Below, one piece after another: positions 1-14,677 of a DNA stretch of 29,598 bases. The position numbers and the translations under genes were made by a program. Numbering within the stretch: position 1 is the first letter of the stretch; each line of letters starts with the position of its first letter. The DNA comes from Calothrix sp. NIES-2098. Lineage in GTDB: Bacteria; Cyanobacteriota; Cyanobacteriia; Cyanobacteriales; Nostocaceae. The stretch lies in assembly GCA_002368175.1 (NCBI GenBank), contig AP018172.1:1-29598 (forward strand), given 5' to 3'. The notes under the pieces were generated by a model. The model did no database searches and was not told the DNA's origin. It saw only the letters and a program-made list of their open reading frames with translations.

Positions 1-2
1 AG

Positions 3-164
3 GCTTTAACTTCTAATGCAACCCCTGGTAAACAGAAGGCACCATTAATTATGCCTGCGACAGGTTGGGTATTTAATAACGGCGAAGTCACGTTGATATC
101 TCATACCCCGAAATCTTCTGCTGCTTGGGTGAATTCCTCTAACTGTGCTGCTAAAAGCCAATGA
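3..164 (+). CDS. 3' end of an upstream filamentous-haemagglutinin-type exoprotein paralog (5'-truncated by window edge)
   Basis: Frame-3 translation reads ...ALTSNATPGKQKAPLIMPATGWVFNNGEVTLISHTPKSSAAWVNSSNCAAKSQ* with a TGA stop at 162-164. Nucleotides 44-147 are ~97% identical to 3697-3800, the 3' end of the next gene. Seen directly in sequence. Confidence 0.6.
   Translation, partial: ALTSNATPGKQKAPLIMPATGWVFNNGEVTLISHTPKSSAAWVNSSNCAAKSQ
44..147. repeat. Direct repeat copy 1 (3' coding end of upstream paralog), ~104 nt, ~3 mismatches versus 3697..3800
   Basis: Seen in sequence: attaattatgcctgcgacaggttgggtatttaataacggcgaagtcacgttgatatctcatac... is present at both locations. Confidence 0.8.
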
Positions 165-325
165 CAGTAAGTAGTCAGGGCTAAAGTCTAATAAAAAATC
201 ACAATCCTCGCCATTTGCCCTAGGGATGAGTAGAATGTTGGATACTTTTTATCCAAAAAATTACTTAGTTTATAGATTAAGTTCGTATAAATAAGCCAAG
301 GTAAGACTTCCGTCACAATACTGAG

Positions 326-3300
326 ATGATTCGAGCTAATCGGCAAAAGTTATGGCACTTGAGATTGGTAATTATATTAGCAATGACTACCGCATTGACA
401 AATTCTGCACGCGCTCAAATTGTTCCAGATGGCACATTAGGAGCAGAAAGTACAATACTCACACCAAATACTAACGTTCAGGGATTACCTGCAAGCTTAA
501 TTGAAGGCGGTGCTACCAGAGGTGTCAATTTATTCCAGAGTTTTTTACAATTCAACGTTGGTGATGGACAAAGAGTTTACTTTGCTAATCCCGCAGGTAT
601 TGAAAACATCTTCACTCGCGTCACAGGTAGCGACCCCTCCAAGATTTTCGGGACTTTAGGTGTGGATGGGAGGGCAAATCTGTTCTTCCTCAATCCCAAT
701 GGTATTATTTTCGGTTCCAATGCCCGCTTAGATGTTGCAGGTTCGTTTCTGGCGACGACAGCCAATAGCTTTGTCTTTGACAATGGCTTGAAGTTTAGCG
801 CTACAAATCCTGAAACAGCCCCATTACTCACAGTCAGTTTGCGTCCGGGGTTGCAGTTTGGCGCAAGTCAGTCGGGAAGTATTAGCAATACCGGAGATTT
901 AAACGTTGGACAAGATTTGACTCTGGTAGGTAGCAATCTCGATTTACAAGGTAATTTACAGGCGGGTAGAGATGTAACTCTTGAATCTCCTGGTGATATT
1001 TATTTAAATAATATAAAAGTTTCTACTAATTCTAATAATAATGACTTTAGCCGCATCAGCATCAACTCTACTGGTGGTTCTGTCTACTTAAATGGCTCTA
1101 ATTTAAATATTAGTAATATTAGCTCCAGCTATGCAGGAGATATCACTATTAATGCACGTCAAGAAATCCGAATTGAGAATGCAAGCAAAATCTCTAGTGC
1201 CGGAAATCTTGGCGAAATATTTATTGGAACATCAGAATATGCAGATTTCTATCCTTCAAAAGTCACTATTGCCAACTCTCAAATAAACAATAGTAATTTT
1301 ATGGATGGTAATGATGTTGGCAATATAGTAGTTAAATCTCTGGGCGATTTATTGATAACTAACAGTAGTCTGGAAACTACAACTTACAGTTCAGGAAAGG
1401 GAGGAAACATTAATATTGAGGCTAGTTCCGTGTCTCTGAAAAATCAAAGTTCTCTATTAGCTAATACTCAAGGAACAGGAAAAGCAGGCAGTGTAACTGT
1501 TAACACAACTGGCGGTGCAGTTTCGCTTTCCGATAGTAGTATAAACACCGGTACTAATCAAATTAGCGTAGCTCTGCAAGATTTATCTAATCAAGAAGGT
1601 GCGGGTGGCGGTGATATTAATATTACAGCTGATTCGTTATTTTTAACAAACAACTCTATTTTAAATGCAAGTAGCTTGGGTTCAGGAGATAGCGGCAATG
1701 TCTCTATTACCGCAGCCAAAACAGTATCTTTTACAGACAATTCTATTTTAAATGCAAGAACTTATCTGCAAGGAAATGCAGGTAATGTCAATATCAAAGC
1801 TCAAGAACTTGCTTTTCATAATCAATCGCTAATCCAAGCCACAAGTTTTGGCAGTGGTAACGCAGGTAATTTGAATATAATTACTCAATCCTTATCTTTG
1901 AGTGACATATCAAGAATTGACGCTCAAACTTTTGGTAGTGGTCATGCAGGTAATATCAATATCAAAACGCAGTCTCTTTCCCTAACAGAGGGAGCGAGAA
2001 TTAATGCTGAAACTTTTGGTAGTGGTAAAGGTGGCAATATTACTATTAATCCTCTCAAAGATGAAGACCAAGCAACTGCTTCTGTTACTATCTCAGGTTC
2101 AGCACCTTTAATTCAAGTTTCCAGTGGATTCTCAGTGAATACTGAAAGCGAACAACCTGATGCTGGGACTGGTGGCAATATCTTGATTAAAACTGGAAAT
2201 CTAACTATTAGTGATGGTGGTGTTTTAAGCGCTCCTTCTAAAAGTAGCGGTAACGGTGGAAATATCAATATCAATGTCAATAATCTTGAGCTTACATCTG
2301 GGGGACAAATTATTACTAATGCTTATAGAAGTGGACAAGCAGGTAGTATCAAAATTAATGCAACCGATCGGATTACCATTACCGGACAAAATTATGAATA
2401 CGAGCAAAGGTTTAATAAACTGAAAAGCCAACTGGATATCCTGAAACCTATCTACGATGCTTTTCTAGTTACAAACAACCAAGAAACTAGACAAATACTC
2501 GACCCAATTACTAACTTGATTAATCACTTGAGTGCATTACTGAAAAGTCCTAGTTCCAATCAACTACTTGACGAACTGAAACAACGACTCGAACAATTTA
2601 AAAATAGCTATGATTTTATTCTAATTGCAAATAATCCACAAATTAGCTACATACTCGAACCAATTAAGAACTTAATTAATAACGTGAATGGGCTGGATCA
2701 AATTATAATTGCTGCGCAAGACCCTACTTACGCTCAACAACTCAATGAACTTAAAGCTCAACTCGATCGCCTAAGTAATAGCTACAATTTTGTTTTACCG
2801 CAAAATGATGCGGAAATTAGACGCATCCTCGGCCCGATTAATCAATATAGCGGACTGTTCGCCAACACCGAAGCAAATTCTACAGGTAATGGCGGTACGA
2901 TTGATGTTGCATCAGGGCAAGCCACAATTAAAGATAGTGCCAGAATCTCTGTAGATAGCCAAGGAACAGGTATAGCTGGAAGTATCAGCATTACATCCAA
3001 TCGTTTGACTCTGGACAATCAAGCAAAGATTACCGCCGACACCAATAGCGGTCAAGGTGGTAGCATCGCACTCAACTTGCAAGATTTATTGCTGTTTCGG
3101 CGCAAAAGTGTCGTTTCCACCACCGCAGGTAGACAAGGTGCAGGTGGCGATGGCGGTGCGATCGCAATTAACCTAGATACTAATCGCGGTTTTATTGTCT
3201 CCCCATCTGTGGAAAATAACGATATCTCTGCAAATGCGTTCTCAGGTAGCGGCGGAACTATCGAAATCAACGCCAAAGGCGTAATTGGGTTAGCAACGCT

Positions 3301-3817
3301 GACTAGACAAGAACTTGAGCAGAAATTAGGCACCACCGACCCGGAAAAACTCGACCCACAATTTCTCTCAACCAACGATATTACAGCGATTTCTCAAACC
3401 AACCCGCAGTTAAATGGCATAGTCAGCATCAGTTCGCCAGAGATTGACCCCAGCAAAGGAATAGTTTCGTTACCAATCAATGCCACCGACCCTTCGCAAC
3501 AGATAGCCCAAAGCTGTAGCGCGGTGAATGAAAAGGTTGCTAGTGCATTTGTTGATGCTGGACGTGGCGGTCTACCCCCCAAACCTGATGAATTTCTCAG
3601 CAGCGATACTGTTTGGGAAGATATCCGCATTCGGGCTAGCAATACACAGCAAACAGCTTTAACCTCTACTGTAACGCCCATTGAACGTAAGACTGCATTA
3701 ATTATGCCTGCGACAGGTTGGGTATTTAATAACGGCGAAGTCACGTTGATATCTCATACGCCCAAGTCTTCTGCTGCTTGGGTGAATTCCTCTAACTGTG
3801 TTGCTGGGAATAATTAA
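326..3817 (+). CDS. Filamentous haemagglutinin family exoprotein (TpsA-like, N-terminal TPS/haemagglutination-activity domain)
   Basis: N-terminal signal-like segment, then a TPS-domain hallmark (NPNGIIFG, GxxxR/ANLFFLNP). Long run of degenerate beta-helix repeats of the type GSGxAGNxNI / TxSL. Central region has three ~58-aa tandem repeats. C-terminal ~35 aa is shared with the upstream paralog. Family assignment from established knowledge of TpsA/FHA proteins. Confidence 0.85.
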   Translation: MIRANRQKLWHLRLVIILAMTTALTNSARAQIVPDGTLGAESTILTPNTNVQGLPASLIEGGATRGVNLFQSFLQFNVGDGQRVYFANPAGIENIFTRVTGSDPSKIFGTLGVDGRANLFFLNPNGIIFGSNARLDVAGSFLATTANSFVFDNGLKFSATNPETAPLLTVSLRPGLQFGASQSGSISNTGDLNVGQDLTLVGSNLDLQGNLQAGRDVTLESPGDIYLNNIKVSTNSNNNDFSRISINSTGGSVYLNGSNLNISNISSSYAGDITINARQEIRIENASKISSAGNLGEIFIGTSEYADFYPSKVTIANSQINNSNFMDGNDVGNIVVKSLGDLLITNSSLETTTYSSGKGGNINIEASSVSLKNQSSLLANTQGTGKAGSVTVNTTGGAVSLSDSSINTGTNQISVALQDLSNQEGAGGGDINITADSLFLTNNSILNASSLGSGDSGNVSITAAKTVSFTDNSILNARTYLQGNAGNVNIKAQELAFHNQSLIQATSFGSGNAGNLNIITQSLSLSDISRIDAQTFGSGHAGNINIKTQSLSLTEGARINAETFGSGKGGNITINPLKDEDQATASVTISGSAPLIQVSSGFSVNTESEQPDAGTGGNILIKTGNLTISDGGVLSAPSKSSGNGGNININVNNLELTSGGQIITNAYRSGQAGSIKINATDRITITGQNYEYEQRFNKLKSQLDILKPIYDAFLVTNNQETRQILDPITNLINHLSALLKSPSSNQLLDELKQRLEQFKNSYDFILIANNPQISYILEPIKNLINNVNGLDQIIIAAQDPTYAQQLNELKAQLDRLSNSYNFVLPQNDAEIRRILGPINQYSGLFANTEANSTGNGGTIDVASGQATIKDSARISVDSQGTGIAGSISITSNRLTLDNQAKITADTNSGQGGSIALNLQDLLLFRRKSVVSTTAGRQGAGGDGGAIAINLDTNRGFIVSPSVENNDISANAFSGSGGTIEINAKGVIGLATLTRQELEQKLGTTDPEKLDPQFLSTNDITAISQTNPQLNGIVSISSPEIDPSKGIVSLPINATDPSQQIAQSCSAVNEKVASAFVDAGRGGLPPKPDEFLSSDTVWEDIRIRASNTQQTALTSTVTPIERKTALIMPATGWVFNNGEVTLISHTPKSSAAWVNSSNCVAGNN
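2414..2870 (+). repeat. Three in-frame tandem ~58-aa coding repeats inside the TpsA-like gene (LKxQLDxL...Y[DN]F[IV]L...[EA]xRxILxPIxNLIN)
   Basis: Protein-level repeats start at nt 2414, 2576 and 2750, a period of ~174 nt. They are seen by eye in the translation. Their helix-like composition contrasts with the flanking Gly/Asn/Ser-rich beta-helix repeats. Confidence 0.6.
3697..3800. repeat. Direct repeat copy 2 (3' coding end of the 1163-aa exoprotein gene)
   Basis: Same ~104-nt segment as 44..147 at a constant offset of 3653 nt. Confidence 0.8.
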
Positions 3818-3937
3818 GGGTTTTAAACTAACCGCCAAGAATTATTTGCTCAGAATATCTAGCTGTGTTCTCTGCGCCTCTGCGTGAATTCCTTTTTTAA
3901 ATCTATATTCACGACTAAATAAAATAACTATATTTAT

Positions 3938-5770
3938 ATGTATTCGTCACTAAAAAACTCTACATTCCAAAGTCCCAAATTTAAAAAATCAAATTTTATA
4001 AGTTGGCTGATATTTACATTTTTTTTATTCAACTTTCTCGCCTTCAAGTCACTAGCGCAAACTCCAACTAACCCACCCGTACAAGATATAGACCGCCAAA
4101 TCGAACAACCTACTCCTCCAACGCCTACACTACCAAAACTGCCGAATCTCGACGAGTTATTTCCATCTCCACCTGTCACTACTCCCACACCTCCAACTGG
4201 CGAAACAGTTCCTAAAGATTTACCAAGAACAATTCAAGTAACTAGTTTTGATGTGATAGGTAGCACTGTATTTAATAAACAAGAATTAGATGCAGCACTC
4301 CAAGAATTTATCAATAAACCCATCTCTTTTGCTCAACTATTAGAAGCGGCAGATAAAATCACAGAACTATACGCTAAAGGTTGTCAAGCTGAAAAGAAAA
4401 ATTCCGATTTACCTTGTTACGTTAACTCCGGCGCCTACATTCCTTCAGACCAAACTTTTAAAGTCGAAGGTGGTATAGTCAAAATTCAAGTTGTAGAAGG
4501 TAGTTTAGAAAGTATTGAGATTCGCGGTACAAGAAGACTCAATCCTAACTATGTGCGAAGTCGCCTAGCTTTAGCTACAGATAAGCCTTTAAATTTAAAG
4601 AAATTACTGCAAGCTTTACAACTATTACAGTTAGATCCATTAATTAAAAATATCTCTGCGGAATTAGGTAATGGTGTTAATCCTGGTGCGAGTGTATTAT
4701 CCGTGCAAGTCGCGGAAGCAAAAACATTTAGCGCCCAAGTTAGTTTAGATAATAACCGTACACCAAGCATAGGTAGTTTTGAACGACAAATTCAACTTAA
4801 CCAAGCAAATTTATTGGGGTTGGGAGATGGATTAAGCATTGGTTATGCAAACACTGATGGAAGTAATAGTGTAGATGTCAGCTATAAATTACCCATCAAT
4901 CCTCGCAATGGCACTTTGCAATTTAATTATAGCTATGCATCCAGCAATGTAATTGAGGAACCTTTCAATATTTTAGATATTGAAGGTACTTCCCAAGAAT
5001 ACGGTGTTAGTTTTCGCCAACCATTAATACAAACTCCCACTACCGAATTTGCAGTTGGAATTAGTGCAACTCATCGAGATAGCGATGTCGGCTTTTTACA
5101 AGCACAGGTGGGAGAACGGCTTCCCTTTCCATCTGCGGGTGCAGATGCAAATGGAAAGACGAAAGCGACTATCTTGCGGTTGTTTCAAGACTGGACTCAG
5201 CGTAGTAGCAAACAAGTACTCGCGGCGCGATCGCAATTTAGTTTAGGTATAGATGCGTTAGATGCCACAATTAACGAAGATGCGCCCGATGGTCAATTTT
5301 TTACATGGCGCGGACAAGCGCAATGGGTGCGTCTGCTAGCACCAGAAACTTTATTTTTAGTACGTGCAGATATTCAATTAGCTGATAGACCCCTATTAGC
5401 CTCCGAACAGATGGGTTTGGGAGGACAAGCAACAGTTCGCGGTTATCGTCAAGACCAAATATTAGCAGATAATGGCTTTTTGGCAACTGCGGAATTGCGC
5501 TATCCAGTGTTGCGCGTACCAGAAATTCAAGGTTTACTACAAGTTACTCCATTTATTGATTTTGGTACAGCTTGGAATTTTTCCCAACCAGGGAGAACTA
5601 CTTTGAATCCTGATACTATCGCCTCAACTGGAATCGGATTGTTATGGCAACAGAACAATTTAACAGCGCGTTTTGATTGGGGTATTCCCCTCGGTATTGA
5701 TATTCCTAATAAAAATACTTGGCAAGAAAACGGACTCTATTTTTCTATTATTTATACTCAACCATTTTAG
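3938..5770 (+). CDS. ShlB/FhaC/HecB-family outer-membrane transporter (TpsB) with POTRA domain
   Basis: N-terminal signal peptide (LIFTFFLFNFLAFKSLAQ|T). Pro/Thr-rich linker (PTPPTPTLPKLP...PPVTTPTPPTGE). POTRA-like segment (IQVTSFDVIGSTVFNKQELDAAL...). C-terminal beta-barrel ending with aromatic Phe (YTQPF), typical of Omp85/TpsB. It starts 120 nt downstream of the TpsA-like gene. Confidence 0.85.
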   Translation: MYSSLKNSTFQSPKFKKSNFISWLIFTFFLFNFLAFKSLAQTPTNPPVQDIDRQIEQPTPPTPTLPKLPNLDELFPSPPVTTPTPPTGETVPKDLPRTIQVTSFDVIGSTVFNKQELDAALQEFINKPISFAQLLEAADKITELYAKGCQAEKKNSDLPCYVNSGAYIPSDQTFKVEGGIVKIQVVEGSLESIEIRGTRRLNPNYVRSRLALATDKPLNLKKLLQALQLLQLDPLIKNISAELGNGVNPGASVLSVQVAEAKTFSAQVSLDNNRTPSIGSFERQIQLNQANLLGLGDGLSIGYANTDGSNSVDVSYKLPINPRNGTLQFNYSYASSNVIEEPFNILDIEGTSQEYGVSFRQPLIQTPTTEFAVGISATHRDSDVGFLQAQVGERLPFPSAGADANGKTKATILRLFQDWTQRSSKQVLAARSQFSLGIDALDATINEDAPDGQFFTWRGQAQWVRLLAPETLFLVRADIQLADRPLLASEQMGLGGQATVRGYRQDQILADNGFLATAELRYPVLRVPEIQGLLQVTPFIDFGTAWNFSQPGRTTLNPDTIASTGIGLLWQQNNLTARFDWGIPLGIDIPNKNTWQENGLYFSIIYTQPF

Positions 5771-5814
5771 TTAATAGTCATTGTCTCCTGCCTTATCCAC
5801 CTACTTAATTATTT

Positions 5815-8538
5815 ATGTCTATAATTTTACTTCTCGCCACCTTATCTCTAAATCCTGCTGTCAATTTAATTAACCAAAGTTCTCCCTTAGTTGCAGCCAT
5901 TAACCCCCAGGTATCACAGACTCAAACTGCAAATGCTAAGGAATTATTAGATCGAGGTTTAATAGCATACCAAAAAGAACAATATTCTCCAGCACTCAAG
6001 ATTTTCCAACAGGCGAATGAATCGTTTCAAGCTACAGGAGATAAACTTAATCAAGCGCTGATATTGAATTATCTTTCCTTAACTTATCAACAGTTAGGAA
6101 AATTAGCTGATGCTCAACACGCTACAGAGCAAAGTTTGCAGTTATTAAATAGCAAAAGTAATAGCAAAGATTATTTATCGATTCGTGCCCAAGCACTTAA
6201 TACTCAAGGCCAGTTACAACTAGCAAGGGGAGAAACAGAAAAAGCTTTAAATAGCTGGCAAGAGGCAACAGCTACTTACAGTAAAATTGGTGATGAATCA
6301 GGTAAAATTGGTAGCAAAATCAATCAAGCTCAAGCACTACAAACATTAGGGCTTTACCGTCGCGCTACTAATATTTTAGAGGAAATTAAGCTGACTTTAG
6401 ATAAACAACCAGACTCTCTATTGAAAGTAACTGGATTTCTTAGTCTGGGTAATAGCTTACGTGTGGTTGGAGATGTCGATAAATCTCGGCAAATATTAGA
6501 GAAAAGTTGTCAGATACAAGCAAAAATATCGCAAGCTGAAGAAGTTTGTAATTTAAAGTTAAGTTTAGGTAACAAAGCCCAAGTAGAACCAAACATCGAA
6601 CAAGATAGATTAGGAGAAATTCTTTTAAGTTTGGGGAATACTGCCCAGGAACAGCAAAACATCGAAGAAGCAATACAGTTTTATGAACGCGCTGCTAGTA
6701 TTTCTCAAAAGCCAACAACACAGTTACCAGCACAATTAAATCAATTACGGCTATTAGTTCAGTCTTTATCAACAGAGTCAATAACGCCAGCTTTGTCACA
6801 AGATATTCTCTCTAAAATTGCCAATTTATCAACAAAGCTTGAGAGTTTACCTGCCAGCCGTAGTAGTGTTTATGCTCGAATTAACTTTGCCCAAACTCTA
6901 GTTAAGTTAACAAAAACAGGTGTGTTAGCAGAGGAAAATATTGCTCAAGATACCTGCACAGCTTCCAATTCTCTCTGTACGGCTGCTAAAGTTGTCGCTA
7001 CAGGTTTTCAGCAAGCTAAAAATCTCGAAGATGTACGCGCCCAAGCCTATGCTTTAGGTACTTTGGGAAGTTTGTACGAACAAACTCAACAATGGTCGGA
7101 AGCTCAAACTTTGACTCAACAAGCGCTAAAATTAGCAGAGGGTATTCAAGCACGAGATATAGCTTATCGTTGGCAATGGCAGTTAGGACGAATTCTCAGT
7201 GCGGATGGTAATACTCAAGGTAATGAGTTAGGTGCCATTGCAGCTTATGATAAAGCAGTCAAGAATTTAAAATCTATCCGTCGCGATTTAGTTACTGTTA
7301 ATCGCGATGCCCAATTTTCTTTTCGGGATGAAGTAGAACCAGTCTATCGAGAATATGTGAGTTTGCTATTACCAAAAACTGGGGAACCTACTACTGAAAA
7401 TTTAGATAAAGCTAGAAAAGTTATTGAATCGTTACAGTTAGCAGAATTAGATAACTTTTTTCGCAGAGCTTGTGTAGACGCTAAACCCGTACAAATTGAT
7501 GAAATCGATCGGCAGAAACAAACAGCTGTAATTTATCCTGTGGTTTTGAGCGATCGCTTATCTATTATTCTCTCATTACCGCATCAGCAAAACAATAAAT
7601 CCCTGAAATTACATACAGTTATTCTGCCTAAAAATGCATTTGAAGAAAAAATTAAAGAACTGCATAGAAAAATATTTTTTAGAAGTTCTCGTGACTTTCT
7701 AGAAACTTCACAGCAAGTATACGAATGGTTGATTCGCCCTATCGAATCAGATTTACAAAATAGCGGTGTGAAAAATATCGTCTTTGTTTTAGACGGAACA
7801 TTGCAGAGTATCCCAATTGCAGCACTTTACGATCGAGAGAAAAAAGAATATTTAATTGAGAAAAAATATAACATTGCTAACACACCAGGTTTAGAATTAT
7901 TACCTCCTCAGCCTTTAACAAACAAACGCTTACAAGCAGTAGTTGGTGGACTCAGTGAAGCCCGTGATAATTTTCCGGCATTACCGGGAGTAAAATATGA
8001 GCTTGAGCAAATCAAAGGTATATTTTCGACAGCCGGAAATTTTATAGATAACAATTTTACGATCAAAAAAATTGAAGAAGCTGTTAAGTCTTTTCCAGGG
8101 GGAATATTACACTTAGCAACTCATGGTAAGTTTAGTTCTAAAGCAGAAGACACGTTCATTTTGACTTGGAATCAACGGCTAAATGTTAACGATTTTAGTT
8201 CTGTATTAAAAACTCGCGAGACCAATCAACAAACTGCAATAGATTTACTTGTCTTAAGTGCTTGTGAAACAGCAGCAGGTGATAGCCGCGCTGCTTTAGG
8301 ATTAGCGGGAATTGCTGTACAGTCTGGCGCGCGCAGTACATTAGCAACTCTGTGGAGTGTGAATGATGAAGCAACTGCGGCTCTAATGATTCAGTTTTAC
8401 AAAGAAATTGCTCAGAATCAAAAAAAAGCTGAAGCTTTACGTAACGCCCAACTATTTCTACTTTCAGGACAGTTAAATCCTAAATTTAAACATCCCTATT
8501 ACTGGGCACCTTTTGTTTTAGTAGGTAATTGGCAGTAA
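5815..8538 (+). CDS. TPR-repeat protein with C-terminal CHAT (caspase-like) peptidase domain and N-terminal signal peptide
   Basis: N-terminus MSIILLLATLSLNPAVNLINQ is signal-peptide-like. TPR-like helical repeats lie at roughly aa 40-480 (YQQLGKLADA, LGLYRRA etc.). CHAT hallmarks: His in HLATHGKF (codon at 8122-8124) and Cys in LVLSACETAAG (codon at 8263-8265), then WSVNDEATAALM and a C-terminal HPYYWAPFVLVGNW. The gene starts 44 nt after the TpsB stop. Confidence 0.85.
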   Translation: MSIILLLATLSLNPAVNLINQSSPLVAAINPQVSQTQTANAKELLDRGLIAYQKEQYSPALKIFQQANESFQATGDKLNQALILNYLSLTYQQLGKLADAQHATEQSLQLLNSKSNSKDYLSIRAQALNTQGQLQLARGETEKALNSWQEATATYSKIGDESGKIGSKINQAQALQTLGLYRRATNILEEIKLTLDKQPDSLLKVTGFLSLGNSLRVVGDVDKSRQILEKSCQIQAKISQAEEVCNLKLSLGNKAQVEPNIEQDRLGEILLSLGNTAQEQQNIEEAIQFYERAASISQKPTTQLPAQLNQLRLLVQSLSTESITPALSQDILSKIANLSTKLESLPASRSSVYARINFAQTLVKLTKTGVLAEENIAQDTCTASNSLCTAAKVVATGFQQAKNLEDVRAQAYALGTLGSLYEQTQQWSEAQTLTQQALKLAEGIQARDIAYRWQWQLGRILSADGNTQGNELGAIAAYDKAVKNLKSIRRDLVTVNRDAQFSFRDEVEPVYREYVSLLLPKTGEPTTENLDKARKVIESLQLAELDNFFRRACVDAKPVQIDEIDRQKQTAVIYPVVLSDRLSIILSLPHQQNNKSLKLHTVILPKNAFEEKIKELHRKIFFRSSRDFLETSQQVYEWLIRPIESDLQNSGVKNIVFVLDGTLQSIPIAALYDREKKEYLIEKKYNIANTPGLELLPPQPLTNKRLQAVVGGLSEARDNFPALPGVKYELEQIKGIFSTAGNFIDNNFTIKKIEEAVKSFPGGILHLATHGKFSSKAEDTFILTWNQRLNVNDFSSVLKTRETNQQTAIDLLVLSACETAAGDSRAALGLAGIAVQSGARSTLATLWSVNDEATAALMIQFYKEIAQNQKKAEALRNAQLFLLSGQLNPKFKHPYYWAPFVLVGNWQ

Positions 8539-8601
8539 TACTAGATACGATCTCATTTAATATGGGAAAATAAACAGCATAATTGGGAGGAAGCAATCGG
8601 C

Positions 8602-9153
8602 ATGAGCGTTATTACTGCCAAGTGGACGATTGACGAATATCACCGCATGATTGACGCTGGCATTTTGAGTTCGCGCAAAGTTGAATTACTTAAAGGAGAA
8701 ATTGTCGAAATGTCGCCGGAAGGGGAACCTCATGCTTATTCTAGTGATGAAGCTGGTGAGTATTTAGCAAACTTATTGAGCGAGCGTGCTAAAATTCGTC
8801 ATGCTAAACCAATTACCCTACCTAACGACTCAGAACCAGAACCAGATATTGCCATTGTTCAACGTTTAGGACGCGAGTATCGAGAGCATCATCCTTATTC
8901 AGAAAATATTTTCTGGGTGATTGAATATGCTAACTCTAGTTTAGACAAAGATCTAGAGACAAAAAGTAAAATCTATGCAGAAGCAGGAATTTTAGAATAT
9001 TGGGTTGTCAATCTTAAAAAGTTACATCTAGTAGTGTTTAGAGACATCCTAGATGGAGAGTATGCAACCAAACAAACGTTAACTTCAGGAACAATTCAAC
9101 CACTTGCATTTCCAGATATTTCTGTTGAAGTAGAAAAAATTATTAATAGGTAA
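8602..9153 (+). CDS. Uma2-family (DUF820) putative PD-(D/E)XK endonuclease
   Basis: The N-terminus (WTIDEYHRMIDAGIL...VELLKGEIVEMSPEG..PHA) and C-terminal D...E.K-like segments (PDIAIV, VIEYANSS, ILEYWVVNL) match a family that is very abundant in cyanobacteria. Assignment from family knowledge. Confidence 0.75.
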   Translation: MSVITAKWTIDEYHRMIDAGILSSRKVELLKGEIVEMSPEGEPHAYSSDEAGEYLANLLSERAKIRHAKPITLPNDSEPEPDIAIVQRLGREYREHHPYSENIFWVIEYANSSLDKDLETKSKIYAEAGILEYWVVNLKKLHLVVFRDILDGEYATKQTLTSGTIQPLAFPDISVEVEKIINR

Positions 9154-9182
9154 TTACGAATTGCCAATTAGTAATTAATTTA

Positions 9183-9203
9183 GGACTTACGCAATTGGCA
9201 CAA
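9183..9203. repeat. IS terminal inverted repeat (one end)
   Basis: Seen in sequence; it pairs with 10408..10428. Confidence 0.55.
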
Positions 9204-9243
9204 ATAGCAGGCAGGGCAAAGCCCTGACACGCGACAATATAAA

Positions 9244-10257
9244 TCAAACCAAGCACATAAAAATACTTGGGCGCTTCAGTTGCTGAATTAAATAATTAGA
9301 AAGCAAGTTATGCTTGATTTGATAGATAGTTTTGCCAGTTCTATAGGCTAAATTCTTTAACCTAACCCAAACCAACATTGCACAAGCAATATGATTTCTT
9401 TGGAGTCTAGCTTTCCGACACTGGCAAGATTCAATGCCAGTTAGTTGTTTAATTTCCCTGTGAAACTCCTCTATTTTCCAACGAATTTTACACACCTGTT
9501 GTACAACATCCGTGGAACTTTGAGATAAATCGTTAGTGGCGACATAATCCGTTCTGTTGGTAGAAACAGTAACCCGGAATAGTTTCACTTTTTTATTAGC
9601 TGGGAATCCTTTAATTTTTATGATTTTACCACAGTCTAATTCTTCTTGGTTCCATTCTAATAATTCAATCCGTTTATATTTTTCTTGACCAAATGTATCA
9701 TCAACTAAACGATTATTTTTTAAAGGGCAATAATAAATTTTGTCTAAGCTATCAATATATAGCATTAAACTGTGTACCGCATACCATGTATCCATCAAAA
9801 CAGTATCAAATGGTAAAAGCTTATGATACACAAGGTTTTGGAGCATATCTTTCACATGGTCTATCTTGGTTTTCCCATCGACATCAGGATTAAAAATTCG
9901 ATAATCTATGACCCAAAATCTTTGAAGTGTAGGGTTGACATACACGCAGCTAACTACACCAATGCCTTTCAGGACACCATGCTCATTACCACTATATTGT
10001 CTTCTGACTATTTCTATTTCTTCAGAATACTTTTTATCTAAAACGCTATCATCAAATATGATGTAACCATTTTCATCAGACTCAACGACCTCTTTCACGT
10101 TATCCCATAGTAAACGAGGTGTTAATTTTTCGGTTTTCAAATAATAGTTAATTGCGTCATGACTAATACTCTCTAAATGCTCTGCCAAATTGGTAATTGT
10201 ATAATTAATTTGACTACTTAATAAATATTGGCAGTAATTAAGCTTAGTAAATCTCAT
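9244..10257 (-). CDS. DDE transposase (IS4/IS5/IS701 superfamily)
   Basis: 337 aa. The C-terminal motif CKIRWKIEEFHREIK has the R-x3-E-x6-K signature of the IS4/IS5/IS701 DDE transposase superfamily. Acidic residues are spaced consistently with a DDE triad. The ORF is flanked by the TIRs above. Confidence 0.75.
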   Translation of the reverse strand: MRFTKLNYCQYLLSSQINYTITNLAEHLESISHDAINYYLKTEKLTPRLLWDNVKEVVESDENGYIIFDDSVLDKKYSEEIEIVRRQYSGNEHGVLKGIGVVSCVYVNPTLQRFWVIDYRIFNPDVDGKTKIDHVKDMLQNLVYHKLLPFDTVLMDTWYAVHSLMLYIDSLDKIYYCPLKNNRLVDDTFGQEKYKRIELLEWNQEELDCGKIIKIKGFPANKKVKLFRVTVSTNRTDYVATNDLSQSSTDVVQQVCKIRWKIEEFHREIKQLTGIESCQCRKARLQRNHIACAMLVWVRLKNLAYRTGKTIYQIKHNLLSNYLIQQLKRPSIFMCLV

Positions 10258-10407
10258 TACCCTTAGCGAAATTTATCTAATATAACCTCTACCTATTTTC
10301 TCACGAATATTTCGATAGTACTTCCAAGACAGCGACTTCTATTACGAAGGCAAAGCTTTCAAAATCAGATTTAATTAATACATATGTACTATGAACTAAC
10401 GATCGCA

Positions 10408-10428
10408 TTGTGCCAGTTGCGTAAGTCC
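10408..10428. repeat. IS terminal inverted repeat (other end)
   Basis: Seen in sequence; reverse complement of 9183..9203 with 1 mismatch. Confidence 0.55.
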
Positions 10429-10433
10429 TGTAA

Positions 10434-11426
10434 TTATAAGGTTAATTTTACCAACTTAGCAGTATCGGGAAAATCACTAAAGACGCCATCAACGCCTAAG
10501 CTGAAAAATAGCTCGTATTCTTTTTGCGGATTACCTTGAAAATCGAGAGGTAAAAACAAATCTTCATTGCGGAAAGTCCAAGCATGAACTAGCAAACCAG
10601 CGTTATGAGCATCGGTGATTAATGATGTAGGCAATCGCAATTTACCATGACTATCTCTAGGCACAAGCAGATTTTTATGAACTCCAATCGCCTTTGCATA
10701 TTTAGCAATCTCTGTTAAACCTGATGCTGTCACCAAGTCTGCATAGGTGCGATCGCCTCCATTGACGATAAAATCATAAGGCTTTCCAGTATTATTAATT
10801 AATTGCACTAAAGGTAAATCAGTTTTTGTTGCTAAATATTTGAGGTTGCTAACTTCAAAAGACTGGATGAATACAGGTGCATTCGCTCCTTGATAACCGT
10901 TCGCCTGTAAACTTGCTAGTAAAGGTTCTTCTAGCGGTAATCCAATCGACTGGAAATAAGAAGGGTGCTTGGTTTCTGGATAAATACCAATGGTACGACC
11001 AACTGCGGTACTTTTAGCCTTGGCTAAATTGATGATTTCTTGCAGTGTGGGAATTTCAAATAGTCCATCATAGTTTGTATTTTGCGATCGCACTTCGGGA
11101 ATTCGCTCTTTTGCCCGTAGTGTTTTTAGTTCTGCCAGGGTAAAGTCTTCAGTAAACCAGCCTGTTTTGGTTTCTCCATCAATAATTTTGGTAGTTTGGC
11201 GTTGAGCAAATTCCGCATGGTTACCAACATCAGTCGTTTCCGAAATTTCATTTTCGTGACGAGCAATTAATACACCGTCTTTGCTAGCAACTAAATCTGG
11301 TTCAATATAATCAGCCCCTAAATCAATTGCTAATTCATAAGCAGCCAATGTATGTTCTGGACGATAGCCGCTAGCACCTCTATGTCCAATAATGATTGGG
11401 GGTGTACCTTGCAAAGTTTTAGTCAT
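10434..11426 (-). CDS. glpQ: Glycerophosphodiester phosphodiesterase (GDPD family, GlpQ/UgpQ-like)
   Basis: N-terminal IIIGHRGASGYRPEHTLAAYELAIDLGADYIEPDLVASKDGVLIARHENE is the canonical GDPD catalytic His/Arg/Glu/Asp arrangement. Confidence 0.85.
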   Translation of the reverse strand: MTKTLQGTPPIIIGHRGASGYRPEHTLAAYELAIDLGADYIEPDLVASKDGVLIARHENEISETTDVGNHAEFAQRQTTKIIDGETKTGWFTEDFTLAELKTLRAKERIPEVRSQNTNYDGLFEIPTLQEIINLAKAKSTAVGRTIGIYPETKHPSYFQSIGLPLEEPLLASLQANGYQGANAPVFIQSFEVSNLKYLATKTDLPLVQLINNTGKPYDFIVNGGDRTYADLVTASGLTEIAKYAKAIGVHKNLLVPRDSHGKLRLPTSLITDAHNAGLLVHAWTFRNEDLFLPLDFQGNPQKEYELFFSLGVDGVFSDFPDTAKLVKLTL

Positions 11427-11917
11427 TAACGCCCCTAAAATAAATCTATCTTGTGTTAGCGATTGGTTGGTGTCGGCTTAGAGGTATTATTTGTGCTAGG
11501 ATTGCCTTCTGTTTAATTACACAATCTTACATAAATTAGTAGCTGTGCGCACGAAAACTATAAAAGCAGCACTAGATATAGATGAAAGCTATCGTTAAAA
11601 AACAATGTAGTCAAGGCTACAAAATGCATCAGATATTTATTTGACAAGGTTAATTTTATTACCTCAAAATAGTTCATCCTATATACCATGAGACTGATGC
11701 TAATAAAAGGATTCAGAATCTTATCACAGTAATAAAATGTATTAATAAATTTTGCTATATTGATTGTATAATTTTTCTAACTGATTATGTGCGCAACCGG
11801 ACAGACTCAAGTTTACTTTTTCAGTAAGCTTAGAAGCAGTTAGTTAACAAAAATATTTTGAAAATTGTTTAAGTAAAGGTCATTTATATACCATTTTAAT
11901 CATATAAATTTTGAGAT

Positions 11918-12235: not shown

Positions 12236-14677
12236 ATGCCCAGTGAAAAAGCTAAAGTCAAAAACAACGGTGTCAGTAATATTATTTCACCAAAGCAGAG
12301 CAATAGAAAGCGATCGCAGCTGGAAGAAACGCAATCATCAGGTACATCACTGCTGCATTCAAGTTCATCAAATAAAAAGATTCAACTAACGGAAACCTTT
12401 CAAGATACTCCTGATATCATCTGCTTATCTCATCTGCGTTGGAATTTTGTTTATCAACGACCACAACATCTTCTTAGCCGTTGCGCCCAAGGAAAACGAG
12501 TTTTCTTTATTGAGGAGCCAATTTTCTCCCCCGATCCCGTGGGCAGGTTAGAGATCGACGAAGATGCTAGTGGGGTAGTCGTGGTTGTACCACATCTACC
12601 AGAAGGAATGAGTGAAGAAGCTATCAACGCAGATTTACAAGTTTTAATTGATGGTTTGTTTGCCAAACATAAAATCGACAAATACATTTGTTGGTATTAC
12701 ACGCCAATAGCGATCGCATTTACTCGCCATTTGCAGCCTCAAGCCATAGTGTATGATTGCATGGATGAATTGTCTGCATTCAAAGGCGCATCACCCACGT
12801 TAAAGAATTACGAAGCCGAACTATTCCGCCTTGCAGACTTAGTATTTACAGGGGGACAAAGCCTTTACGAAAGTAAAGTCAACCAGCATCCCAACGTCTA
12901 TGCATTTCCTAGCAGTGTAGATGTGCCACACTTTGCCCAAGCCAGAAATATTCCAGAAGCAGCAGATCAAGCCCATATTCCCCATCCTCGCCTCGGATTT
13001 TTTGGCGTCATTGACGAACGGATGGATATTGAACTGCTGGCTGGTATTGCCGAAGCGCGTCCTGATTGGCATTTAGTAATTATTGGGCCAGTTGTCAAAA
13101 TCGATCCCGCAACTTTACCACAGCACGAGAATATACATTATCTCGGTGGCAGAGACTATAAACAACTACCTGCCTATTTAGCAGGGTGGGATTTGGCAAC
13201 ATTACCCTTTGCGCGTAATGAGTCAACACGCTTTATTAGTCCTACCAAAACTCCAGAGTATCTTGCCGCAGGTCGACCTGTAGTATCCACCTCAATTCGC
13301 GATGTGGTGCGTCCCTACGGCGAGTCGAAACTGGTGCGAATTGCAGACACAGTTTCGGATTTCGTCACCGCCGCCGAACAAGCAATGCAAGAAGACACCA
13401 GAACATCAGAATGGTTGAGTCGAGTAGATGCTTTCTTAGAAAAGATTTCTTGGGATCGGACTTGGGCATCAATGATGAAACTGATTGATTCTGCCATTGC
13501 TGCCCGCGATAGTGAAGACAAAGCTAACTCCAAAGGTGCAGCGAGTACACAAGCACCAAATATCATTACTAGAGAATTTGTCTTCGATTACTTGGTTGTC
13601 GGCGCTGGTTTTTCTGGCAGCGCGATCGCCGAACGTTTGGCAAGTCAGTCTGGTAAAAAAGTACTGATTGTAGACAAGCGCAATCACATCGGCGGCAATG
13701 CCTACGATCATTATGACGATCATGGCGTTCTCGTACACAGATACGGCCCGCATATCTTTCACACCAACTCCCGCGAAGTCTTTGAATACCTTTCGCGCTT
13801 CACTCAGTGGCGTTCTTACGAACATCGCGTTCTGGCAAGTGTAGACGGGCAACTTGTCCCGATTCCCATCAACCTCGACACCATCAACAAGTTGTATGGT
13901 ATGAATCTCAATTCATTCGAGGTGCAGGAGTTTTACAAATCACTCGCTGAACCAATAGAAAACATCCGCACTAGTGAGGATGTGGTGGTGAGCAAAGTTG
14001 GTCGAGAACTGTATGAAAAGTTTTTCCGGGGTTATACGCGCAAGCAATGGGGACTCGACCCATCAGAACTTGATAAATCAGTAATTGCCCGGATACCGAC
14101 CCGCACCAACCGCGACAATCGTTATTTTACCGATACTTACCAAGCAATGCCACTGCACGGCTTTACGCGGATGTTTGAGAATATGCTCAATCATCCGAAT
14201 ATCAAGATAATGCTGAACACAGATTATCGGGAAATTCAAAAAGCCATTCCTTGCCGTGAAATGGTTTACACAGGCCCAGTTGATGAATTTTTTGATTATC
14301 GCTATGGCAAGCTACCATATCGATCGCTCGATTTTAAGCATGAGACACACAACACAACTGTGTTTCAATCAGCACCAGTCATCAACTATCCTAACGAACA
14401 CCTTTATACCCGCGTGACGGAGTTTAAGTACTTAACTGGGCAGGAACACAATAAAACTAGTATTGTGTACGAATTTCCCAAAGCTGAGGGCGATCCTTAC
14501 TATCCTATACCGCGTCAAGAAAATAACGAAATGTACAAGCAGTATAAGGCGCTGTCTGATACGACACCAGGAGTATATTTTGTCGGCAGACTAGCAACCT
14601 ACAAGTACTACAACATGGATCAATGTGTTGCTCAGGCTCTCTCTGTGTACAAGCAAATTGCCGTTAAAGCCTCATAA
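12236..14677 (+). CDS. Bifunctional glycosyltransferase (N-terminal, GT-B-like) / UDP-galactopyranose mutase (C-terminal Glf domain) fusion protein
   Basis: C-terminal ~370 aa match UGM/Glf throughout: FAD motif VVGAGFSGSAIA, KRNHIGGNAY, YGPHIFHT, GYTRKQWG, RIPTRTNRDNRYF, YRSLDF, GDPYYPI, GRLATYKYYNMDQ. N-terminal ~440 aa resemble a GT-B fold glycosyltransferase (WNFVYQRPQHLL, FFIEEP). The first ~60 aa are Ser/Lys-rich low complexity, so the start is uncertain. Confidence 0.8.
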   Translation: MPSEKAKVKNNGVSNIISPKQSNRKRSQLEETQSSGTSLLHSSSSNKKIQLTETFQDTPDIICLSHLRWNFVYQRPQHLLSRCAQGKRVFFIEEPIFSPDPVGRLEIDEDASGVVVVVPHLPEGMSEEAINADLQVLIDGLFAKHKIDKYICWYYTPIAIAFTRHLQPQAIVYDCMDELSAFKGASPTLKNYEAELFRLADLVFTGGQSLYESKVNQHPNVYAFPSSVDVPHFAQARNIPEAADQAHIPHPRLGFFGVIDERMDIELLAGIAEARPDWHLVIIGPVVKIDPATLPQHENIHYLGGRDYKQLPAYLAGWDLATLPFARNESTRFISPTKTPEYLAAGRPVVSTSIRDVVRPYGESKLVRIADTVSDFVTAAEQAMQEDTRTSEWLSRVDAFLEKISWDRTWASMMKLIDSAIAARDSEDKANSKGAASTQAPNIITREFVFDYLVVGAGFSGSAIAERLASQSGKKVLIVDKRNHIGGNAYDHYDDHGVLVHRYGPHIFHTNSREVFEYLSRFTQWRSYEHRVLASVDGQLVPIPINLDTINKLYGMNLNSFEVQEFYKSLAEPIENIRTSEDVVVSKVGRELYEKFFRGYTRKQWGLDPSELDKSVIARIPTRTNRDNRYFTDTYQAMPLHGFTRMFENMLNHPNIKIMLNTDYREIQKAIPCREMVYTGPVDEFFDYRYGKLPYRSLDFKHETHNTTVFQSAPVINYPNEHLYTRVTEFKYLTGQEHNKTSIVYEFPKAEGDPYYPIPRQENNEMYKQYKALSDTTPGVYFVGRLATYKYYNMDQCVAQALSVYKQIAVKAS

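Follow-up and report, generated by a model that had tools for sequence, protein, structure and literature searches.

Analysis of 29,598 nucleotides of DNA from Calothrix sp. NIES-2098 (hereafter the window, meaning this entire 29.6-kb stretch) reveals three co-directional genes, encoding an exoprotein of the two-partner secretion (TPS) type, TpsA, an outer membrane transporter, TpsB, and a TPR-CHAT cysteine protease with an intact His/Cys dyad. We tentatively interpret the locus, at slightly under an even chance, as a cyanobacterial type Vb (two-partner) secretion operon composed of two tandem TpsA genes, TpsB, and a dedicated extracytoplasmic TPR-CHAT protease. The original prediction, made from this DNA alone, had offered two roles for the protease, either maturation or release of TpsA or export as an effector with or by the TPS pair. 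The former is favoured here, in that a periplasmic TPR-CHAT protease may process or release TpsA through a conserved module at the C-terminus of the exoprotein, an explanation that we consider to have nearly, if not quite, an even chance of being correct.

Two-partner secretion is regarded as a minimal pathway of two proteins. Here, a gene for a protease of the caspase fold is built into a TPS operon, beside a very large exoprotein family with an undescribed C-terminal tail; the standard review of TPS systems places the genes of maturation proteases outside TPS operons (PMC5422565). Were the protease to process the TpsA tail, the latter would represent a hitherto unrecognized signal by which type Vb exoproteins are sorted or released, and the reaction would be among the very few physiological roles known for bacterial CHAT proteases. 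Linkage of the protease gene to DUF928 and CHASE2 genes would in that case offer a testable handle on what CHASE2 sensors detect. The question bears on the manner in which cyanobacteria control surface adhesins, with consequences for biofilms, mats, symbiosis, and possibly phage adsorption. The literature searched contained no paper connecting CHAT with TPS, DUF928 or CHASE2, or describing the present system, in line with the earlier statement that the TPS-CHAT linkage is functionally uncharacterised.

Organization of the locus

The three open reading frames have exactly the coordinates that had been given for them, and lie on one strand, separated by 120 nt and 44 nt (Table 1). The domains that had been recognized by eye (TPS, POTRA/ShlB, TPR, and CHAT) were all recovered as Pfam profile matches. 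In TpsA, the TPS domain spans aa 30-293 (E 5e-45, 154.8 bits, cut-off 33.5), the NCBIfam model adhes_NPXG (TIGR01901) also matches (E 1e-25, 89.5 bits), and TPS motifs occur at aa 88 (NPAGI) and aa 123 (NPNGI). TpsB matches ShlB (1e-31, 110.8 bits), Omp85 (4e-16, 59.8 bits) and POTRA_2 (2e-11, 43.7 bits), all above the cut-off, and has 5,074 homologues at E<=1e-20. By inspection, the N-termini of both proteins display a basic n-region, a hydrophobic core and an A-x-A site, that of TpsA having the appearance of a Sec-type signal peptide (MIRANRQKLWHLRLVIILAMTTALTNSARA, with the site before Q).

Table 1. Features of the TPS-CHAT locus, in window coordinates.
Feature	Position	Strand	Residues	Remarks
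Upstream tandem TpsA paralogue, 3' end	1..161	+	last 53 codons	from translation; cut by window edge
tpsA	326..3817	+	1163 aa	putative signal peptide, TPS domain, beta-helix body, conserved C-terminal module
TpsA C-terminal module	3374..3814	+	~150 aa (aa ~1017-1163)	from alignment of 69 CHAT-linked TpsA tails
Cys1064 of module	3515-3517	+	aa 1064
GRGGLP of module	3560-3577	+	aa 1079-1084
MPATGW of module	3704-3721	+	at aa 1127	beyond variable linker
Cys1158 of module	3797-3799	+	aa 1158
tpsB, Omp85/TpsB outer-membrane transporter	3938..5770	+	610 aa	putative signal peptide, Pro-rich linker, POTRA domains, barrel
TpsB loop-6 VRGY	5435-5446	+	aa 500
TpsB FIDFG	5552-5566	+	aa 539
TPR-CHAT cysteine protease	5815..8538	+	907 aa	Pfam CHAT and TPR families
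Hydrophobic N-terminal segment	5815-5898	+	aa 1-28
TPR superhelix	5935-7458	+	aa 41-548
CHAT domain	7702-8529	+	aa 630-905	Pfam PF12770
Putative catalytic His770	8122..8124	+	HLATHG, codon CAT	follows strand 764-768 in AF2 model
Putative catalytic Cys817	8263..8265	+	LVLSACET, codon TGT	follows strand 811-815 in AF2 model

A second, tandem TpsA, which had gone unremarked in the original prediction, is present at the left edge of the window. The product of this fragment includes the final part of the conserved C-terminal module (...IMPATGWVFNNGEVTLISH...C) and is identical to the C-terminus of the complete TpsA in 44 of 50 aligned residues. A syntenic locus of Aulosira (L083) has two TpsA genes, and window positions 17-188 align with the end of the first. 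The upstream context was taken from this 88%-identical Aulosira locus, where a DUF928 gene lies just upstream of the first TpsA gene, in a region whose counterpart falls outside the window. Within the 29.6 kb, neither Pfam nor tblastn detected a DUF928 or CHASE2 gene, and Tandem Repeats Finder detected no tandem repeats in positions 1-9000. In a scan for promoters and terminators, promoter-like sites were at shuffle expectation and terminator-like sites were in slight excess (11, as compared to 7.2 ± 3.0 expected), figures that say nothing on operon structure.

The order of substrate before transporter had been read as a reversal of the classical arrangement, a view that does not hold. This order is not unusual, since cyanobacterial TpsB proteins group in the Hmw1B subgroup (PMC4104836), the hmw1abc operon is likewise ordered A-B-C (PMC5422565), and both orders occur among relatives of the present locus, A-then-B being common in related loci.

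Dyad and fold of the TPR-CHAT protein

The CHAT domain is matched along virtually its whole profile (positions 2-289 of 289; E 3e-60, 204.5 bits, cut-off 24). The intact His/Cys dyad reported for it is substantiated: both codons are as expected, His770 and Cys817 are invariant across 74 homologues, and in an AF2 model (pLDDT 82, pTM 0.81) the two residues follow the two central strands, at the positions known from the caspase fold. Likewise, among 81 CHAT open reading frames of related loci, the His motif is found in 79 and the Cys motif in 75. Searches of PDB sequences with the full-length profile or with the CHAT domain returned TPR proteins at most, or nothing, and a fold search was needed; the TPR-CHAT fold matches Csx29, separase and gingipain, and Foldseek matched it to DdvA (1e-12), the identity to separase and Csx29 being 11-14%.

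The C-terminal module of TpsA

The module that closes nearly every CHAT-linked TpsA is not covered by any model of Pfam or NCBIfam. When its 147 aa were used as the query of a word-indexed search, just 11 short fragments were recovered, and an exhaustive profile search was hence employed; the latter matched at least 8,591 representative proteins (clusters), 1,569 of them at E<=1e-30, and in every one of the best 150 matches listed the module lies at or near the C-terminus. The TGRGGLP motif is present in 140 of 147 sequences, and the flanking Cys residues in 138-140 of 147. That the C-terminal module of TpsA is conserved had been proposed previously and is confirmed, its conservation (0.48 bits per residue) equalling that of the TPS domain (0.46), whereas the passenger body reaches only 0.13. 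Since the module is conserved like the TPS domain and the body is not, the pattern fits a sorting or processing tag. The module is a candidate for the part of TpsA that the CHAT protease cleaves or uses as a handle. An AF2 prediction of the isolated module, calculated from a 12-sequence alignment, had a pLDDT of 37 and is uninformative with regard to the fold, a disulfide, or the exposure of GRGG.

Gly/Arg/Pro motifs look alike in the module and in DUF928 but do not indicate homology, as an hhalign comparison of the DUF928 alignment with the module found no relationship (probability 0.2%). A TpsA of the CDI or polymorphic toxin type was considered and rejected, in that the C-terminus is conserved and the gene after it is tpsB or CHAT and not a small immunity gene.

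According to the favoured explanation, TpsA would cross the inner membrane by Sec and would subsequently be threaded N-to-C through TpsB, with the C-terminal module being the last part to leave the periplasm, where it could serve as a handle for retention and processing. The module comprises two Cys flanking the near-invariant TGRGGLP, a presumably flexible linker, and a putative strand pair with the pattern IVEAxGW..G.V.L. The TPR-CHAT protein, having entered the periplasm through its N-terminal hydrophobic segment, would bind the module by means of its TPR superhelix and cleave it, possibly after the invariant Arg of GRGG. Such cleavage would either mature the exoprotein or free TpsA from the cell surface.

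Linkage of CHAT, TPS, DUF928 and CHASE2 genes in cyanobacteria

The loci compared are the 80 closest relatives out of at least 590, and percentages derived from them hold for this CHAT subfamily only. In 51 of the 64 related loci with at least 3 kb of upstream sequence, a TpsA or TpsB gene lies within 10 kb of the CHAT gene, and in 35 the gene that immediately precedes CHAT in the same orientation is a TPS gene (27 TpsA, 8 TpsB). The CHAT gene adjoins TpsA more often than TpsB, and in most relatives it comes after TpsA with no TpsB nearby. When TpsB homologues were chosen independently of CHAT (57-92% identity), a TPR-CHAT gene was immediately downstream in four out of five. The TPS-CHAT pairing is conserved in filamentous and other cyanobacteria, and the recurrence that had been claimed for it is thus upheld by both counts. 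The closest relatives, Aulosira and Calothrix NIES-2100, have the arrangement TpsA-TpsA-TpsB-CHAT. The remaining 13 of the 64 loci have a CHAT gene without a TPS gene within 10 kb, which implies that the protease does not strictly need an adjacent TpsA; DUF928, CHASE2 or both are present in 8 of these 13.

A recurrent linkage to DUF928 and CHASE2, absent from the original prediction, emerged from the same loci. A gene for a secreted DUF928 protein is found near the CHAT gene in 43 of the 80 loci and a gene for a CHASE2 membrane sensor in 37, with both in 35, and the canonical order of the neighbourhood is CHAT>DUF928>CHASE2. The DUF928 proteins carry classic signal peptides; the CHASE2 proteins are transmembrane sensors with an extracytoplasmic CHASE2 domain and a kinase or GGDEF-EAL output. 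As DUF928 and CHASE2 flank the protease gene in most relatives, proteolysis is probably coupled to transmembrane signalling.

This linkage lends weight to the suggestion that the TPR-CHAT protein works chiefly in a periplasmic sensory pathway with DUF928 and CHASE2, in which TpsA proteins would be outputs or antennae and CHAT would either respond to a signal or produce one, as has been proposed for the periplasmic TPR-CHAT of DdvA, its structural precedent in signalling. It is of note that in several loci (for example L015, L026, L065 and L069) the CHAT-DUF928-CHASE2 trio occurs without any TPS gene, and that a fusion of a metacaspase to CHASE2 is on record in Trichodesmium (PMC2853523). However, neither the cluster in the window nor those of Aulosira and Calothrix NIES-2100 show CHASE2 in the visible sequence, and a sensory role alone would leave the common C-terminal module of thousands of TpsA proteins unexplained; we thus regard it as unlikely, albeit with a real share of the probability. 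Signalling by the protease and processing of TpsA are compatible with each other and not exclusive. More broadly, TpsA, TpsB, TPR-CHAT, DUF928 and CHASE2 could form one envelope system throughout cyanobacteria, acting as a protease-gated circuit for surface sensing or adhesin release, a proposal that we judge improbable as a whole. In such a circuit, a periplasmic caspase-like protease would cut surface beta-helix proteins in the C-terminal module that they retain, and CHASE2 receptors would read the cleavage state or product, either directly or via DUF928, and drive kinases or c-di-GMP enzymes. Were this the case, it would provide the first known function and ligand for CHASE2, DUF928 and the TpsA tail.

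Fate of the TpsA tail and location of the protease

Removal of the module need not be a simple hydrolysis. The clan-CD enzymes PorU, GPI8 and legumain catalyse transpeptidation, PorU acting in this manner on the C-terminal domains of T9SS substrates and GPI8 in the attachment of GPI anchors. A sortase-like reaction, in which the clan-CD protease would remove the module and covalently attach TpsA to an envelope component, would be in keeping with the existence of many paralogous substrates that have a common C-terminal tag beside a dedicated enzyme of this clan. Nevertheless, there is no sign of an acceptor molecule or of attachment, separase and craspase, the CHAT enzymes that have been characterised to date, are hydrolases, and the module is devoid of the terminal hydrophobic segment that is typical of classical sorting signals, which together make such a reaction quite improbable.

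Processing of TpsA in the periplasm, the favoured explanation, presupposes export of the protease. The N-terminus of the TPR-CHAT protein had been described as signal-peptide-like, wording that is fair insofar as the segment is hydrophobic; it is nonetheless atypical, given that MSIILLLATLSLNPAVNL... is without Lys or Arg, and its hydrophobic core is followed by a long Asn/Pro-containing stretch. A longer N-terminus is ruled out by a TAA stop 9 nt upstream. Residues 1-38 are disordered in the AF2 model, as expected for a signal peptide and linker. The start of the protein is hydrophobic in 64 of 74 CHAT homologues, 34 of which have a basic residue ahead of the segment, and many homologues of the latter kind have AxA-like sites (such as MSRLILLAAIAQIAVATSPLVAA, with the site before D). 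We infer that the TPR-CHAT protease is exported.

The absence of a basic residue could alternatively indicate a cytoplasmic CHAT protein, either a regulator resembling HetF or an effector of a conflict system, whose gene would lie beside TPS genes on account of co-regulation or island structure. Csx29 and separase, the TPR-CHAT proteins that have been characterised best, are indeed cytoplasmic, and a Uma2 gene and an IS element adjoin the locus. Comparison with the syntenic locus of Aulosira shows, however, that these last two have been inserted, and neither cas genes nor a gene for an ECF sigma factor are found nearby; PADLOC matched neither TpsA nor TpsB to a defence system, and gave for the CHAT protein only a weak TPR match (E 3.8e-6). 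In addition, the conserved partners of CHAT (TpsA, TpsB, DUF928 and CHASE2 sensors) are all envelope proteins, and the hydrophobic start seen in most homologues often has canonical signal-peptide features. A cytoplasmic location is consequently very unlikely. Finally, the second role in the original prediction, in which the neighbouring TpsB would export TPR-CHAT, either as cargo in its own right or together with TpsA, is suggested only by the position of the gene, 44 nt after tpsB, and by the hydrophobic start of the protein, and is rendered scarcely credible by the fact that the CHAT gene mostly follows TpsA without a nearby TpsB in relatives, that the first 500 residues fold into an alpha-helical TPR solenoid in the AF2 model and not into a beta-helix, and that Pfam detects no TPS domain in the protein, which is hence not TPS cargo, this domain being required for recognition by TpsB (PMC5422565).

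Comparison with characterised systems

In Pseudomonas aeruginosa, the TpsA adhesin CdrA is exported by the TpsB protein CdrB, and is subject to a protease under the control of a receptor that resides in the inner membrane and has a periplasmic domain (PMC5422565, PMC4694147). The present locus resembles this LapG/LapD-CdrA system in having a TpsA with a conserved C-terminal module and a putatively periplasmic cysteine protease, and many relatives add a CHASE2 membrane sensor with a periplasmic domain and a kinase or GGDEF-EAL output. The parts themselves are unrelated: LapG belongs to the transglutaminase-like (BTLCP) proteases and LapD is a receptor of the degenerate GGDEF-EAL type, whereas here a clan-CD TPR-CHAT protein is encoded in the TPS operon, and no open reading frame of the window contains a BTLCP (LapG) or LapD domain. 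Moreover, the candidate site is TGRGGLP here and a di-alanine motif in the Lap system, and DUF928 has no Lap counterpart. The likeness is one of functional analogy only, the function of the present proteins being presumed. FhaB/FhaC of Bordetella, with maturation by SphB1 and in periplasmic steps, offers a further parallel, in that this TpsA loses its C-terminal region in the course of secretion or afterwards and its release depends on a dedicated protease; SphB1, however, is an autotransporter of the subtilisin type whose gene lies outside the fha locus, while the protease gene here lies in the operon and belongs to another clan.

With regard to the protease, DdvA of Myxococcus xanthus is the only characterised extracytoplasmic TPR-CHAT protein, and it has its fold in common with the window protein. 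It is a transmembrane anti-sigma factor with a periplasmic TPR-CHAT region and a conserved His-Cys dyad, for which a role in envelope signal transduction has been proposed (PMC11506125). DdvA is dimeric, begins with a zinc anti-sigma domain, has a TM helix, and works with an ECF sigma factor that controls CBASS and CRISPR; the window protein, in contrast, begins with only a short hydrophobic segment and has no sigma factor as a partner, its partners being TPS, DUF928 and CHASE2 proteins. An anti-sigma factor of the DdvA type was rejected as an identity for it, as only 38 disordered or hydrophobic residues precede the TPR domain, with no ZASD or TM helix, and the window holds no sigma gene. Csx29/craspase and separase differ in being cytoplasmic or nuclear and regulated by Cas7-11/RNA or by securin, and a type III-E craspase (Csx29) was likewise rejected, no cas genes being present in the window or in the listed neighbourhoods. 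In terms of gene order, the closest likeness is to HMW1A/B/C of Haemophilus influenzae, where an accessory gene follows A and B and whose Hmw1B subgroup holds the cyanobacterial TpsB proteins; the accessory protein HMW1C is a cytoplasmic glycosyltransferase, whereas the third gene of the present locus encodes a CHAT protease.

The TPS-CHAT cluster and its limits

In Calothrix sp. NIES-2098, a genuine two-partner secretion (TPS) pair with tandem substrates, comprising the exoprotein TpsA and its outer-membrane transporter TpsB, is encoded together with an intact TPR protein that ends in a caspase-fold (CHAT) protease domain, and both this linkage and a C-terminal module of TpsA are conserved. 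The intergenic gaps are short (120 nt between tpsA and tpsB, 44 nt between tpsB and the CHAT gene), and since the three ORFs are long and their family matches strong, they are not chance reading frames. TpsA displays, by inspection, a classical signal peptide and NPAGI and NPNGI motifs, while TpsB carries the loop-6 VRGY and FIDFG motifs; the CHAT ORF is 100% identical to a Calothrix sp. NIES-2098 protein. A check of ORFs and family matches found the gene boundaries and gaps of the original prediction to be exact, and its dyad codons, 8122-8124 and 8263-8265, indeed encode His770 (HLATHG) and Cys817 (LSACET).

Features of the window (nucleotide positions unless marked aa)
Feature	Position	Strand or orientation	Description
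tpsA	326-3817	co-directional with tpsB and CHAT gene	1163 aa; Pfam TPS 5e-45 (aa 30-293), NCBIfam adhes_NPXG 1e-25
TpsA helical repeats	2393-2875 (aa ~690-850)		three ~52-aa repeats (...QLLDELKQRLEQFKNSYDFILIANNPQISYILEPIKNLIN...) interrupting the beta-helix
TpsA C-terminal module	aa		Cys1064; GRGGLP 1079-1084; MPATGW 1127; Cys1158
tpsB	3938-5770	co-directional with tpsA and CHAT gene	610 aa; ShlB 1e-31, Omp85 4e-16, POTRA_2 2e-11
TpsB proline-rich linker	4061-4222 (aa ~42-95)		TPTNPPVQ...PTPPTPTLPKLP...PPVTTPTPPTGETVP, between signal peptide and first POTRA
TPR-CHAT gene	5815-8538	co-directional with tpsA and tpsB	907 aa; TPR repeats, then full-length CHAT domain 3e-60
Uma2-family gene	8602-9153	+	between CHAT and GDPD genes; matches PADLOC candidate-defence models PDC-S03 (E 6e-16)
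DDE transposase	9244-10257	-	between CHAT and GDPD genes
Fusion ORFs	12236-14677; 14883-17093		in sugar-metabolism cluster
193-aa ORF	17177-17758		N-terminal third only of GDP-mannose dehydratase/epimerase profile
257-aa ORF, TTG start	18063-18836		C-terminal part only of fatty-acid desaturase profile
DUF72, two overlapping ORFs	23425-24169		profile positions 1-139 and 142-215

The limits of the cluster emerge from comparison with Aulosira sp. ZfuVER01, whose order is DUF928-TpsA-TpsA-TpsB-CHAT followed by a GDPD gene, and with which positions 203-8547 are collinear at 87.7% nucleotide identity. Because positions 17-188 align with the last part of the first of the two Aulosira TpsA genes, bases 1-161 are the 3' tail of a tandem TpsA paralogue, and by synteny the true cluster probably begins further upstream, outside the window, with a DUF928 gene. 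Downstream, positions 10456-11428 match the Aulosira GDPD gene, which in that locus comes immediately after CHAT; the intervening stretch (8548-10455), with its Uma2 and transposase genes, is thus an insertion that marks the edge of the cluster.

Linkage across cyanobacteria

With each species represented by one genome, a scan yielded at least 590 relatives, of which the 80 closest loci were kept (40-77% identical; identifiable sources are all cyanobacterial, some being labelled only ‘uncultured bacterium’), and their six-frame ORFs were searched by jackhmmer with the window proteins as queries. A TpsA-like or TpsB gene lies within 10 kb of CHAT in 51 of the 64 loci whose upstream sequence is 3 kb or longer (80%), and in 35 loci a TPS gene is directly upstream on the same strand (TpsA in 27, TpsB in 8). 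TPS genes probably number in the tens in a typical Nostocales genome of about 7,000 genes, so that chance adjacency should be well under 1%. Moreover, when five TpsB homologues (57-92% identity) were picked without regard to CHAT, four were immediately followed by a TPR-CHAT gene, the remaining one being an orphan TpsB. Tandem TpsA genes, two or three, are common. Synteny is kept among close relatives, Calothrix NIES-2100 having TpsA-TpsA-TpsB-CHAT and Nodularia CHAT-TpsA-TpsB-CHAT with a CHASE2 kinase close by. The association of CHAT with TPS pairs thus recurs well beyond this genome. The original prediction had also considered the substrate-before-transporter order as a reversal of the classical one; however, both orders occur among the relatives, the hmw1 operon itself is ordered A-B-C (PMC5422565), and cyanobacterial TpsB proteins fall within the Hmw1B subgroup (PMC4104836).

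Some loci depart from this layout. Some (L030, L082 and L089) hold two CHAT genes (672-3308 and 10001-12853 in L089; 22-2940 and 3024-4511 in L082, the second lacking the TPR region), and in Nodularia the two flank the TpsA-TpsB pair. Two TpsB-CHAT loci without an adjacent TpsA carry a gene for a stand-alone TPR protein (~235 aa) just upstream of TpsB (L085 8978-9691, L087 8711-9418).

Loci devoid of TPS genes led to two further partners. In 43/80 loci there is a gene for a secreted DUF928 protein, whose signal peptide is of the classical type and which bears the conserved motif F.PPG.GAP...GGASR...C. A CHASE2 sensor, a membrane protein that exposes this domain outside the cytoplasm and is a hybrid histidine kinase, a Ser/Thr kinase or a GGDEF-EAL protein, is encoded in 37/80; both partners are present in 35. 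The most frequent order is TpsA>(TpsA>)CHAT>DUF928>CHASE2>, and 68 of the 80 loci contain one or more of the four kinds of partner. Pfam and tblastn searches detected neither DUF928 nor CHASE2 within the window, and hhalign found no homology between DUF928 and the TpsA module.

A common C-terminal module in TpsA

Nearly all CHAT-linked TpsA proteins share a C-terminal module of ~150 residues, over which profile searches of the window ORFs placed no Pfam or NCBIfam model. It opens with ...SDITA...DP..GLV.LP..., a Cys, and F..TGRGGLP..P...W.D, continues through a variable low-complexity linker (about 40-45 residues from GRGG to IVEA.GW, median 44), and closes with IVEA.GW..N..G.V.L.A and a final Cys ~5-10 residues from the end. 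An exhaustive search of 1.84 billion representative proteins with the module profile yielded 8,591 matches at E<=1e-3, 6,049 at E<=1e-10 and 1,569 at E<=1e-30; among the best 150 listed, the module is at or near the C-terminus in every match. G[RK]GG, mostly TGRGGLPP, occurs in 140 of 147 top matches and both flanking cysteines in 138-140, and 7 of 10 sampled matches possess an N-terminal TPS domain.

Within CHAT-linked TpsA proteins, the module (0.48 bits per residue) equals the TPS domain (0.46) in conservation, the passenger body being far less conserved (0.13). Strong conservation at both ends with a variable middle is the pattern expected where one terminus carries a secretion signal and the opposite one a tag for sorting or processing, and it rules out a polymorphic-toxin (CDI) TpsA.

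Two ORFs directly upstream of CHAT, of 110 and 113 aa (L061 9439-9768, L072 9453-9791), consist of the module only, lack a TPS domain, and may represent relics of genes or free-standing modules. The helical repeats in the TpsA body, which Tandem Repeats Finder did not detect at the DNA level, look like a coiled-coil insert, and the TpsB linker is similar to the Pro-rich stretches at the N-termini of cyanobacterial Omp85 proteins.

Fold and export of the TPR-CHAT protein

A confident AF2 model built on 74 homologues (pLDDT 82, pTM 0.81) places a TPR superhelix (residues 41-548) after a disordered N-terminus (1-38) and before an alpha/beta CHAT domain, in which His770 and Cys817 directly follow strands 764-768 and 811-815. 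Neither residue varies among the 74 homologues, and of the 81 CHAT ORFs in related loci, 79 have the His motif and 75 the Cys motif. Foldseek matched the model to DdvA (1e-12); sequence-only PDB searches recovered none of the fold-search matches such as this one. In DdvA, an anti-sigma factor of Myxococcus, the periplasmic region of ~900 residues is a TPR-CHAT, and the authors of its study describe it as the sole characterised anti-sigma factor bearing this domain (PMC11506125).

In the N-terminus, MSIILLLATLSLNPAVNLINQSSPLVAA, ten residues form a strongly hydrophobic core and Lys and Arg are absent; a longer version is excluded by a TAA stop 9 nt 5' of the ATG. A hydrophobic N-terminal segment is present in 64 of 74 homologues, preceded in 34 of these by a basic residue, often together with A-x-A-like sites (e.g. 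MSRLILLAAIAQIAVATSPLVAA/DRG); another group displays long Arg-rich leaders before the hydrophobic stretch. As hydrophobic, often signal-peptide-like N-termini recur in this manner, extracytoplasmic targeting looks like a family trait of which the window protein is an atypical member. We infer that this protein is exported as well, the more so since the conserved partners of the CHAT gene are exclusively envelope-associated.

Potential roles of the protease

These observations suggest a scheme in which TpsA is threaded through TpsB from N- to C-terminus, so that its module would be the last part to remain in the periplasm. There, the exported protease could bind the module through its TPR superhelix and cut it; the cut may fall just behind the invariant Arg of GRGG, and it would lead to maturation or release of the exoprotein. 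The localisation, substrate and mechanism of the protease are deduced from genomic association, and we hold this scheme tentatively, at slightly less than an even chance. Its closest working analogue is Pseudomonas CdrA/CdrB. The C-terminal cysteines of CdrA have reportedly been proposed to help hold it in CdrB, which would parallel the two conserved cysteines of the module. The proteins are unrelated, however: the protease is a CHAT here and a BTLCP (LapG) there, and the sensors are CHASE2 proteins here and LapD there, the membrane receptor that controls LapG (PMC5422565; PMC4694147). In addition, the known proteases that mature TPS exoproteins have their genes elsewhere than in the TPS operon (PMC5422565), whereas here the gene lies inside.

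A role chiefly in signalling, with DUF928 and CHASE2 and by analogy to DdvA, is compatible with TpsA processing, and as the main function it seems rather unlikely. A sortase-like transpeptidase, modelled on PorU and GPI8, is improbable. Marginally more so is a cytoplasmic regulator or conflict protein, a notion opposed by the envelope partners and the conserved N-terminus. The original suggestion that the protease is itself exported with or by the TPS pair is very hard to sustain, given its alpha-helical N-terminal half and lack of a TPS domain.

All components belong to known, routinely auto-annotated families. What appears to be undescribed is the combination of a caspase-fold protease encoded within a TPS operon, a very large family of TpsA proteins that share one C-terminal module, and the recurrent DUF928 and CHASE2 linkage. 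In full-text searches of open-access papers and bioRxiv (subscription journals lying outside their scope), no paper was found for ‘CHAT domain’ with ‘two-partner secretion’ or with hemagglutinin and cyanobacteria, nor any functional study of cyanobacterial TPS; DUF928 returned a single, unrelated paper, and CHASE2 with CHAT only a 2010 metacaspase survey that notes a metacaspase-CHASE2 fusion in Trichodesmium (PMC2853523). The system makes two open questions testable, namely the roles of CHASE2 and DUF928 and the maturation or release of cyanobacterial surface exoproteins. If the proteins of PMC10811720 belong to the families described here, they would provide the first phenotype for a TPS-CHAT system.

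Other genes of the window

In the sugar-metabolism cluster, two unusual ORFs are fusions: a group-1 glycosyltransferase with a UDP-galactopyranose mutase (813 aa), and a glycosyl hydrolase family 1 domain with an RmlD-like reductase (736 aa). The partial dehydratase/epimerase and desaturase ORFs may be truncated genes, and the split of DUF72 suggests a frameshift or pseudogene.
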